This document shows, piece by piece, positions 1 through 3,175 of a stretch of DNA of 51,462 nucleotides (the stretch's first letter is position 1; every line of letters starts with the position of its first letter). The translations under genes and the position numbers were made by a program. Under the pieces are notes generated by a model. The model was not told the origin of the DNA. It searched no databases and worked only from the letters and a program-made list of their open reading frames with translations. This stretch comes from an uncultured Clostridia bacterium (GTDB lineage: Bacteria > Bacillota > Clostridia > TANB77 > CAG-508): positions 1-51,462 of the forward strand of contig CANRKF010000003.1 in the NCBI GenBank assembly GCA_947631145.1, read 5' to 3'.

Positions 1-63
1 TTCTAGCTTCATTTTCCTCTTGCTTTCTTTTAAGTTTTGTCTTTTCCTTTGTTCTTTTACCAT
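1..63 (-). CDS. 5' end of a gene running off the window (MVKEQRKRQNLKESKRKMKLE...), product unknown
   Basis: ATG at 63 with an AAGGAGG RBS upstream; frame is open to the window edge. Confidence 0.7.
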   Translation of the reverse strand, partial: MVKEQRKRQNLKESKRKMKLE

Positions 64-299
64 TGTTTTTCCTCCTTCTTTTATTTTGTTTTTTTCTTTT
101 TAGTTATTTTATATAGAAAATAACATTTTACAAAATAATATTTTTTACTTAATATTTTCTTTAAAAATATTTCCTTATTTATATTTTTACATAAAACTTT
201 CATTATAAAAAATATTTTTTAATATTACTTTCTTTATAAAATAAATTAAATTATATAAATTTAAAATATTAAAATCTTTTTTAGTATATTTTTAAGCAC

Positions 300-340
300 A
301 ACAAAAGGACAGACTATTTTTTTCAAATAATCTATCCTTT
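300..340 (-). terminator. Intrinsic terminator/attenuator upstream of the gene starting at 63
   Basis: Minus strand AAAGGATAGATTATTT-loop-AAATAGTCTGTCCTTT then TGTTGT; the two stem mismatches are G-U pairs only in this orientation. Confidence 0.75.
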
Positions 341-388
341 ATTATTCTTAATATATTTTTACATAAAAAATAAACTACTAATAAACTC

Positions 389-475
389 TTAGTATTGTTT
401 TCTTTCTTTAATAGTATAAGTGTGTGTGTGTGTGTGTACAGCCTCAAGGCTTTCAGCCGTTTTTTCTTGTGTCAT
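389..475 (-). CDS. 28-aa leader peptide MTQEKTAESLEAVHTHTHTYTIKERKQY containing an (AC)9 tract
   Basis: AAAGGAG RBS, ATG at 475, TAA at 389-391; translated by hand. Confidence 0.6.
   Translation of the reverse strand: MTQEKTAESLEAVHTHTHTYTIKERKQY
420..437. repeat. (GT)9/(AC)9 dinucleotide microsatellite
   Basis: Seen directly; the only such tract noticed in the window. Confidence 0.95.
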
Positions 476-757
476 TTTTCTTTTCTCCTTTGTTTATTTT
501 TATGCTTTTTATTTGATTTGTTCTTATTAAATCACATTTACATTTTTTTGTAAATACTTTTTTTTATTTTTTTATATAAATTACCTCTACTGTTACAAAA
601 TAACAATTTTTTCTAAATTTAATCTTTATTTCTAATTTGTAATTAATAACTTTGACTTTTCTATACTTTTATGCAATAATATGTGGTACCAGATAAATGC
701 TAAAAAATGTATTTTGAAATTAAAATATTAATTTTAAAAATTTCTGAAAGGATAAAA

Positions 758-3175
758 ATGGATACGCTTTTAAATAAATTAGAATATAATCAAATTATTC
801 AAATAATAAATAAATATTGTAAAACATATCTTGGAAAAAATTTATGTAATAGTTTAATTCCAAGTTTTGAATTTGAGCATGTAAAAAACTCTTTAGAAAA
901 GGTTAATCAAGTAACTTCTCTTCTATTTCAAAAAGGAGCTCCTCCTTTATATGAAATAGAAGAACTTGAACTGCCTATTAAAATGCTAGAAAGTATGCAA
1001 ATATTAACTGCCAAAAACTTGCTTGATATTGCACACCTTTTAAAAATGGCTTCTGAACTACACAGTTATTTTTATAACGATGAAAATTTTGATTTATCTT
1101 CTTTTAATTTAATAGAAGATTACTTTTCTTCGCTATATTCTAACCCTAATATTTTGAAAAATATTACTTCTAAAATTTTAGATGAGAATACTATTGCAGA
1201 TAATGCTTCTAGCAAATTAAGTGCTTTGCGCAAAAGCAGAAAAAATTTAGAGCAAGATGTAAAAGATAAATTAAATTCATATATTCATTCTAGCAAGTAT
1301 TCTAAATATATTATGGATCCTATTGTAACTGTTCGTAATAATCGTTATGTAATACCTGTTAAGGAAGAATATAAAGATTTTGTTAAAGGTTTTATTCATG
1401 ATACTTCTTCAAGTGGTTCTACCCTATATATTGAGCCTACTTCAGTGTTTGAAGCTAATAATCAAATTGCTCATATTAAAGTTGAAGAGGAGCTAGAAAT
1501 TCAAAGAATTTTAAGTGAGCTTTCCTCTCTTCTTTACCCTTATGTAAATGAGCTTTCTAAAAATTTAGATTGTATTGGTGCTCTTGATTTGCTTTTTGCA
1601 AAAGCTACTTATGGTAAAGATGAAAATTGTAATGTTCCTAATTTAAGCGAAAAAAAGTATATTAATTTTTATAAGGCACGTCACCCTTTATTAGATAAGA
1701 AAACTGCCGTGCCTATTGATATTTATTTAAAAGAAGATAACCCTTGTTTATTAATTACAGGTCCTAATACTGGTGGTAAAACAGTTGCTTTAAAAACAAT
1801 TGGCTTACTTCTTCTTATGGCATATTCAGGTATTCCTATACCTTGCCATGAAAAAAGTAGTATTTGTGTGTTTTCAAAAATTTTTGTGGATATTGGCGAT
1901 GAGCAAAGTATAGAGCAGTCTTTAAGTACATTTTCTGCTCATATGATGAATATTATAAATATTACCAATAATGTGAATAATAATAGCTTAATACTTTTAG
2001 ATGAGCTTGGTTCTGGCACAGATCCTGTAGAAGGTTCTGCCTTAGCTATTAGTATTTTAAGCTATTGTAAAAATGCTGGTGCTTTTATATGTTGCACAAC
2101 TCATTATCCAGAATTAAAAGAATTTGCTTTAGTTACAGATGGTTTTGAAAATGCAAGCTTTGAGTTCGATTTAGAGAATTTAAAGCCTACTTATCGTTTG
2201 TTAATTGGTATTCCCGGAAAAAGTAATGCTTTTGAAATTAGTAAAAAGCTTGGTTTAAATTCTGATATTTTGCAAAATGCTTCTTCTTTTTTGAAAAAAG
2301 ATAAAGTTTCTATTGAAGAATTACTAAAAAATATATATAATAATAAGCTGTTAATTGATAAAGAAAAAGAAGAAATTGAAAAGAATTTAAGTCAAATTTC
2401 TGGCTTAAGGCAAGCTTTGGAAAATGAAAAAAGAGAGCTTGAGGAAAAGAAAAGGGATTTAATTGAAAAGGCTAAACTTGAGGCTAGAGAAATTGTTTTA
2501 GATGCTAAAGAAGAAGTTAATGATATTATACAGGAATTAAATAAAGAAAATATAGATATTAAAACTGCTAATTCTAATAGAAATAAATTAAATAAAAAAA
2601 TAAAGGAGTTAGTTCCAAATAGTAGTTTAAGTTCTTATGAAGCTTCTGAACTTGAAGGCTTAAATGCTTCTAAAAAGCTTAATCCAAATGAGGTTTCTCA
2701 GGGTTTAAGTGTATGGGTTCCTTCTTTTAATTCTGAAGGGACAGTTTTAAGCTCACATGTTAGTAAATCTGGCGAAGTTATGGTTCAAGTTGGACTTGCT
2801 AAAATGAGTTTAAAATTAGAACAACTTACTAAAATTGCTAATACTTCTGGTTATACCAATGGTTCTAATTCTGCTAATGGTTCTAATAATAAAAATGGTC
2901 AGGTTCATACTTTTTCTAGTTCTAAAGCTCAAATGGTATCTTCTGAAATTAATGTTATTGGGCAAAATGTTGAAGATGCAATTTATGTAATTGATAAGTA
3001 TATAGATAACTGCGTTTTAGCACACCTTTCTCCTATTCGCATTGTTCATGGAAAAGGTACTGGCAAGCTTCGTGAAGGTATACATGCGTATTTAAAAAGA
3101 AATCCTCATGTAAAATCTTTTCGTTTGGGTACTTTTGGCGAAGGTGAAATGGGCGTAACTGTTGTGGAGTTATAA
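758..3175 (+). CDS. mutS2: Endonuclease MutS2
   Basis: TGPNTGGKT Walker A, LDELGSGTDP, C-terminal Smr domain (IVHGKGTG); start moved to ATG 758 after the GAAAGGA RBS. Confidence 0.95.
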   Translation: MDTLLNKLEYNQIIQIINKYCKTYLGKNLCNSLIPSFEFEHVKNSLEKVNQVTSLLFQKGAPPLYEIEELELPIKMLESMQILTAKNLLDIAHLLKMASELHSYFYNDENFDLSSFNLIEDYFSSLYSNPNILKNITSKILDENTIADNASSKLSALRKSRKNLEQDVKDKLNSYIHSSKYSKYIMDPIVTVRNNRYVIPVKEEYKDFVKGFIHDTSSSGSTLYIEPTSVFEANNQIAHIKVEEELEIQRILSELSSLLYPYVNELSKNLDCIGALDLLFAKATYGKDENCNVPNLSEKKYINFYKARHPLLDKKTAVPIDIYLKEDNPCLLITGPNTGGKTVALKTIGLLLLMAYSGIPIPCHEKSSICVFSKIFVDIGDEQSIEQSLSTFSAHMMNIINITNNVNNNSLILLDELGSGTDPVEGSALAISILSYCKNAGAFICCTTHYPELKEFALVTDGFENASFEFDLENLKPTYRLLIGIPGKSNAFEISKKLGLNSDILQNASSFLKKDKVSIEELLKNIYNNKLLIDKEKEEIEKNLSQISGLRQALENEKRELEEKKRDLIEKAKLEAREIVLDAKEEVNDIIQELNKENIDIKTANSNRNKLNKKIKELVPNSSLSSYEASELEGLNASKKLNPNEVSQGLSVWVPSFNSEGTVLSSHVSKSGEVMVQVGLAKMSLKLEQLTKIANTSGYTNGSNSANGSNNKNGQVHTFSSSKAQMVSSEINVIGQNVEDAIYVIDKYIDNCVLAHLSPIRIVHGKGTGKLREGIHAYLKRNPHVKSFRLGTFGEGEMGVTVVEL

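Follow-up and report, generated by a model that had tools for sequence, protein, structure and literature searches.

A repeat-bearing leader as a candidate phase-variable attenuator before pilin-like genes in uncultured gut Clostridia

A short leader open reading frame (ORF) carrying an (AC)n tract, followed by an intrinsic terminator, lies at one end of a contig from an uncultured Clostridia bacterium, and comparison with its relatives indicates that this locus is probably a phase-variable leader-peptide attenuator of the kind known from the pil1 and pil3 pili of Streptococcus gallolyticus. By "the window" we mean the whole stretch of DNA that was analysed (51,462 nt); its contig is referred to as C3 among the contigs of the source genome. 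The same anatomy recurs within that genome and across an order of gut Clostridia.

In the mechanism that we propose, a promoter at approximately 554-526 would drive a transcript opening with a short translated leader that holds the (AC)n tract, and slipped-strand changes in n would shift the frame of the leader. In two registers, including that of n = 9 found here, ribosomes would stop 48-67 nt before the terminator, the hairpin would form and most transcripts would end (a low or OFF state). Values of n such as 10, 7 or 13 give the third register, in which the ribosome would translate through the hairpin and stop 10 nt beyond it. A ribosome passing through the hairpin would prevent its formation and transcription would continue into the downstream gene (ON). 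This gene probably belongs to a family of about 30 surface-protein paralogs whose N-terminus is pilin-like. The elements of the window copy are listed in Table 1.

Table 1. Elements of the repeat-bearing leader cassette in the window.
Feature	Positions	Strand	Remarks
Leader promoter, inferred	526..554	-	-35 TTTACA 554-549, 17-nt spacer with TGn, -10 TTTAAT 531-526
RBS AAGGAG	485..490	-	9 nt ahead of leader ATG; read from sequence
Leader ORF, n = 9 assembly register	389..475	-	28 aa, MTQEKTAESLEAVHTHTHTYTIKERKQY; start ATG 475, stop 391-389
Slippery tract (AC)9	420..437	-	inside leader ORF, read as (His-Thr)n
Leader ORF continuation, n+1 / n-2 register	292..419	-	41 codons across terminator, stop TAA 294-292
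Intrinsic terminator	295..340	-	16-bp stem-loop 340-304, U-rich tail 303-295
Conserved motif AGATTTTAATATTT	264..277	-	14 nt, past terminator, in spacer
Promoter-like site TTGTAA-16-TAAAAT, weak	106..133	-	9 of 12 match, in spacer; candidate independent promoter
Downstream gene start	1..78	-	RBS AAGGAGG and first 21 codons, ATG at 63

A first-pass annotation of this DNA had described an RBS, an ATG, an (AC)9 tract, a terminator and a further gene in that order, and all of these elements are present where it had placed them, on the minus strand of positions 1-600. The repeat unit is not a multiple of three and lies within a translated-type leader ORF that has an RBS and a start codon. In the n = 9 register the leader stop is 48 nt upstream of the terminator stem, in agreement with the earlier description of a peptide ending at 389, about 50 nt before the hairpin. 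With n = 8 the stop comes earlier still, as had been predicted, after LYY at 410-408 (67 nt upstream of the stem). With n = 10 or 7 the frame (ILLKKENN...SLSFCCA) stays open after the tract, traverses the hairpin just as the annotation had claimed and ends 10 nt beyond the full stem; Pfam gave no family for this ON-register continuation. All three frames of the window copy therefore end before or just past the terminator, beyond which a separate RBS and ATG serve the next gene. This is not the arrangement of classical in-frame SSR phase variation, in which the tract and the controlled protein share one ORF. Judged from the frames, the OFF state that had been assigned to the locus would be correct for the assembly register, n = 9.

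A terminator scan of positions 1-800 returned a single site (340-304, 16 pairs, T-rich tail) as compared to 0.0 in 50 shuffles, and when 285-480 was folded as RNA the hairpin appeared in the MFE structure as well as in the centroid (z = -4.57). As in pil1-type switches, it stands between the leader and the next gene. An Rfam search of window positions 1-1500 in E-value mode gave chance-level matches to eukaryotic families only, and no known riboswitch or leader. Upstream, the positions of the inferred -35 and -10 boxes are kept in related cassettes, where the -10 reads TAAAAT, TTTAAT or TTAAAT. The TTTAAT of the window copy is non-canonical, and the inferred promoter is absent from the promoter-scan listing because this box has T at position 2. 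A perfect inverted repeat, TTTACA-N6-TGTAAA (537-554, minus strand), overlaps the inferred -35 and may be an operator.

Only the first 21 codons of the downstream gene are present, as position 1 of the window is also the start of the contig. Searching all of the retrieved loci by tblastn with these 21 residues returned the window itself only, with no significant relative. Divergent to the cassette is a plus-strand ORF of 822 aa (707-3175), which by eye we take to be MutS2; tblastn with its N-terminus against the same loci likewise returned the window alone, and hence no relative at the same locus. By comparison with the copies on C60 and C39 and with other relatives, the cut gene is presumed to be a pilin-like paralog, and it would be transcribed together with the leader.

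We found the leader several times in the source genome (1.55 Mb, 26.8% GC). This genome has four (AC)n tracts of five or more units and all four sit in the same leader context, so the tract is not a chance occurrence; a fifth copy of the leader is cut by the end of contig C42. In the complete copies n is 9 (C3, the window), 8 (C12), 13 (C48) and 10 (C60), and copies with flanks that are 96-98% alike differ between 9 and 13 units, which is consistent with the tract instability proposed for the window copy. The tracts of C3, C48 and C60 have a terminator after them and are not fused to a protein. C60 has a pilin-like gene past the spacer, with its own RBS and ATG, and the C39 contig starts within the terminator and has the layout of C60, while the C48 contig ends before any downstream gene. 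In each of the three copies one frame is open from the tract to just past the hairpin, for 41 (C3), 71 (C48) and 66 (C60) codons. The C60 assembly is in this open register (an 82-aa ORF ending in CPFCCI), and C3, C48, C12 and C8 are not.

On C12 the wiring is different: one register of the leader MKKIAETVGAV(HT)n reads on into a protein of approximately 500 aa, with a pilin-like helix (G/ITLIALVVTIVVLLILAGITI) at its N-terminus and an FGE-sulfatase-like stretch at its C-terminus. On the evidence of its reading frame, C12 is a case of ordinary in-frame phase variation. C8 has a (GA)14 tract (C8:10702-10729) in the same leader position, ahead of a 509-codon pilin-like ORF that is out of register in the assembly. 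In the fused copies, C12 with (AC)8 and C8 with (GA)14, the repeat thus lies within the N-terminal pre-sequence of the protein itself, and the number of repeats sets the frame of the whole protein. Two further tracts, (CT)12 at C41:33-56 and (CT)17 at C65:2-35, stand at contig starts, and together with that of C8 they appear from their sequences to form a sister family of (AG)n switches. A leader that senses His or Thr, as in his or thr attenuators, was considered and rejected, since the value of n is not constrained, the controlled genes encode surface proteins, and the sister cassettes have (AG)n, read as Glu-Arg, in place of (AC)n.

Upstream of a pilin-like gene at the end of contig C52 is a version of the cassette that has no tract. 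The stop of its leader, MKQQNIESEKIKGIDYS, falls within the loop of a hairpin that is a degenerate form of the cassette terminator, and this copy may be locked in one state. In C48 (1640-1760 of its extract) the (AC)13 tract is followed about 35 nt on by the leader-like GTTGGACAGTCTG and (GA)5, an arrangement that looks, from its sequence, like the remnant of two tandem switches. The window copy corresponds to a C48-like copy from which approximately 97 nt are missing, the missing stretch including the degenerate (GA)5. Relative to C48, the junction of the deletion in the window lies at 419-420.

Given this deletion, the window copy could be degenerate. One possibility is that it is a decayed relic, in which the downstream gene is transcribed from a promoter of its own in the spacer and the length of the tract has no effect. 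The loss of DNA relative to C48 would fit this explanation, as would the promoter-like site at 133-106, the conserved motif in the spacer and the length of the spacer itself, which is about 240 nt in the window and belongs to a hairpin subfamily in which spacers are long (100-240 nt). An independent promoter in the spacer of the window copy is therefore possible, when weighed on the site at 133-106 and the motif at 277-264. However, the site at 133-106 may be due to chance, since the whole scanned region has 10 such sites as compared to 6.6 +/- 2.5 in shuffles, a match no better than expected in DNA this rich in A+T. Paralogs that do have their own promoters carry near-consensus boxes. Moreover, after the deletion one frame is still open for 41 codons across the hairpin, with a shuffle probability of 0.079 for the cluster of the window (see below). 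We consider it unlikely that the window copy is a relic of this kind.

The motif itself, AGATTTTAATATTT, was present in 11 of the 105 leader-type loci described below, all of them of one hairpin subfamily. In its form AGATTTTAATATTT(TATTCT) it is invariant across species and lies 10-70 nt past the terminator in that cassette subfamily. The source genome has it past the terminators of C3, C39, C48 and C60, and two further matches are strays. We rejected a role as a recombination site common to all of the paralogs, since it occurs only after these four cassette terminators and at the two strays. No consistent sigma-70 geometry was seen around it by eye. Its role may be that of a promoter, an operator or an RNA element.

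Beyond the source genome, the motif GCTGTACACACACACAC (with at most one mismatch) was found in 21 of the 61 genomes of the order, the window's own counted, and the reversed control gave 0. As many as 40 matches occurred in one genome of the order. A longer form of the pattern recovered at least 123 stretches from a species-representative collection. Among the matches listed (80 records), all were titled as assemblies of uncultured Clostridia, Clostridium, Clostridiaceae, Eubacteriales or Lachnospiraceae; several titles among these listed matches refer to material from rabbit, sheep or roe deer, and one record is Clostridium sp. CAG:389.

From the retrieved DNA we compiled 125 non-redundant tract loci, dropping exact duplicates and loci with less than 150 nt after the tract. 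There were 105 leader-type loci and 20 in-frame fusions, with n ranging from 6 to 36. By the criteria used, 73 of the 105 leader-type loci had a terminator within 330 nt and 32 did not. Exactly one frame reached the hairpin in 65 of the 73 loci with a terminator, while more than one did so in three and none in five. In the 65 single-frame loci the stop was most often inside the hairpin (41 loci), and otherwise up to 20 nt after it (14), up to 12 nt before it (6) or further on (4). The register found in the assembly reaches the hairpin in 17 of the 73 loci.

Because these loci are related, their counts are not independent. We therefore grouped them into 42 clusters according to the 9-mers that they share and took a single representative per cluster for the test, which lessens this problem and does not remove it; read with that limit, a frame was open to within 12 nt of the stem in 37 of the 42 clusters as compared to 16.7 expected. 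The expectation came from dinucleotide-preserving shuffles of the intervening DNA, and in 1000 shuffled sets the maximum was 26, with none at 37. At least eight unrelated hairpin sequences have this common geometry of frame and terminator. One open frame to the terminator is thus kept by selection. The first-pass annotation had proposed a search for other copies of the leader with the same geometry, and it does recur, both in the source genome and across the order of gut Clostridia.

What is kept is not a protein. The long-frame peptides have no common sequence, vary in length from 17 to about 100 aa and have no Pfam match, and so what has been conserved is a route to the terminator along which a ribosome meets no stop. 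These observations bear on another possibility, namely that the tract switches a small protein whose ON-register form has about 60 aa, that the hairpin is the terminator of that gene and that the next gene is independent. The ORF does have a promoter-like site, an RBS and a terminator, and its long frame is kept open; however, the peptides are wholly different between clusters, and the next gene begins within 40 nt of the stem in 17 of 41 relatives. In addition, the stop of the long frame lies beyond the U-tract, so that terminated transcripts would have no stop codon. This makes a switched small protein highly improbable.

The spacing of the next gene also supports control at the terminator. 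A pilin-like gene lay downstream within the retrieved DNA at 41 leader-type loci. In 17 of the 41 the distance from stem to ATG was 27-40 nt, most of it RBS, and in 34 of the 41 the best promoter-like match was 8 of 12 or worse. A promoter does not fit into 40 nt or less, and in these relatives the target can therefore be transcribed only through the terminator (three examples were checked by eye).

It could be argued that translation through the hairpin acts after transcription, by unfolding, by stabilising the mRNA or by coupling into the next gene. In tight relatives the RBS of the target is 15-25 nt past the stem, and coupling is conceivable there, but in the window about 225 nt separate the hairpin from the RBS, too great a distance for coupling. 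The hairpins have G+C-rich bases and U-tracts that are typical of intrinsic terminators, and in S. gallolyticus the effect was at the level of the transcript (PMC3894217). We judge a post-transcriptional effect to be very unlikely. The first-pass annotation had suggested that slippage would switch the downstream gene by ribosome occlusion of the terminator, and the comparison, comprising the 37 of 42 clusters, the short spacers and the S. gallolyticus precedent, favours that reading and the attenuator model for the window copy.

To what family would the downstream genes belong? About 30 open frames in the source genome carry the pilin-like helix. Class III prepilin signals have a G ahead of a hydrophobic helix with Glu at +5, and the paralogs read G/ITLIALVV with Ala in that position. 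Pfam searches of the paralogs returned only FGE-sulfatase at cut-off for one of them (P0001), nothing for the paralog on C6, and no pilin family. In view of the missing Glu and the missing Pfam match we call these proteins "pilin-like" only. As expected of a type IV pilin system, the genome has both a prepilin peptidase (Peptidase_A24, 71.7 bits), which is on C31 beside another paralog, and an assembly ATPase (T2SSE, 337.8 bits) on C17. The region C17:8000-17300 has an array of about ten short pilin-like genes (130-170 aa) with the same N-terminal helix, followed directly by two T2SSE ATPase genes.

Several paralogs have no leader and carry instead near-consensus TTGACA/TATAAT boxes with palindromes. 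Upstream regions with such promoters were seen on C6, C9, C10, C22, C25, C31 and C56. On C6 (extract 1157-1375, minus strand) a divergent gene upstream encodes a 72-aa XRE-type HTH protein (Pfam HTH_3, E = 1.5e-15). From these sequences it looks as though the same gene family has a second, regulator-based mode of control.

The sequencing runs on record for the window stretch are eight DNA runs, represented as contigs, and no RNA run; the best is from a rabbit gut metagenome. In the four of these DNA runs that were aligned, all contigs break at the tract, with none bridging 408-445. A scan of metagenome contigs with the window's own leader sequence gave 0 matches. Contigs end at the tract, and also where the paralogs encode their conserved helix (C42:14114, C39:1, C3:1 and Logan contigs). 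Since assemblies break at both places, loci of this kind are systematically fragmented in MAGs. The cassette accounts for the assembly breaks at these loci, and also for why gene callers would miss the state of the switch.

On balance we lean slightly towards a broader proposal: that one conserved repeat-bearing leader cassette, with either (AC)n or (AG)n as its repeat, acts across the order as a random switch for general use, wired either as an in-frame fusion or as a ribosome-dependent attenuator and placed before up to dozens of pilin-like paralogs per genome, so that each cell would draw one of very many surface combinations. The carriers of the cassette are uncultured commensals of rabbit, ruminant and human guts. 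If the proposal is true, slippage-driven leader-peptide attenuation would be a widespread source of surface variation in gut bacteria, with a bearing on immune and phage evasion, and a mechanism known from one streptococcal pilus would rank among the main ways in which the gut microbiota varies its surfaces.

Parts of this arrangement are familiar from other systems. In the opa genes of Neisseria, CTCTT repeats in the signal or leader coding region give classical translational phase variation. The fused copies on C12 and C8 resemble these genes, as each has its repeat in the protein's own N-terminal pre-sequence; in contrast, the tract of the window is parted from the next gene by stops in all frames and by a terminator, and that gene has its own RBS and ATG. 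In the pyrBI attenuator of E. coli the leader ORF extends through the terminator, as here, and a closely following ribosome blocks the hairpin. The signal there is physiological, UTP-dependent pausing, whereas here it would be a heritable change of frame. In Clostridioides difficile, cwpV undergoes phase variation through DNA inversion catalysed by a recombinase, which makes or removes a terminator in the 5' leader. The likeness is in the phase variation of a surface protein by way of a terminator in the 5' leader; the difference is that the cwpV switch relies on neither repeat slippage nor translation, through which the switch here would operate.

The closest system is that of S. gallolyticus. 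Its pili are the only experimentally studied example that we found in the literature on this switch, and nothing was found there on (AC)n leaders or on Clostridia. Danne et al. 2014 (PMC3894217) proved a phase-variable leader-peptide attenuator for pil1 and pil3, with GCAGA repeats, by means of start-codon, stop-codon and terminator-deletion mutants. The mechanism is thus already published for that species and is not new. In that system (PMC3894217) a low-state leader ends 39 bp ahead of the hairpin and a high-state leader within or after it, and isolates with a leader stop 28 nt or more upstream of the hairpin behaved as low. The registers of the window fit this rule, as two of them stop 48 and 67 nt short of the stem and the third stops 10 nt beyond it.

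In both systems an SSR lies within a leader ORF and a premature stem-loop terminator precedes a gene for a surface appendage. The short register stops tens of nucleotides before the hairpin (39 bp there, 48 nt in the window), the long register stops within or just after it, and the outcome is a stochastic on/off switch, which for the window is proposed. They differ in the repeat unit, which is GCAGA (5 nt) in S. gallolyticus and AC (2 nt) here, and in the targets, which are sortase pili there and type-IV-pilin-like paralogs here. The host in our case is an uncultured, low-GC lineage of gut Clostridia; the cassette is multi-copy (up to 40 motif matches per genome) and its leader is also used as an in-frame fusion. 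The logic of the S. gallolyticus switch would be found here with a different repeat, in a different bacterial class and before a large family of surface proteins. What sets the present case apart is the number of copies, the breadth of occurrence in a gut lineage that is uncultured, and a leader that is put to two uses, as fusion and as attenuator.
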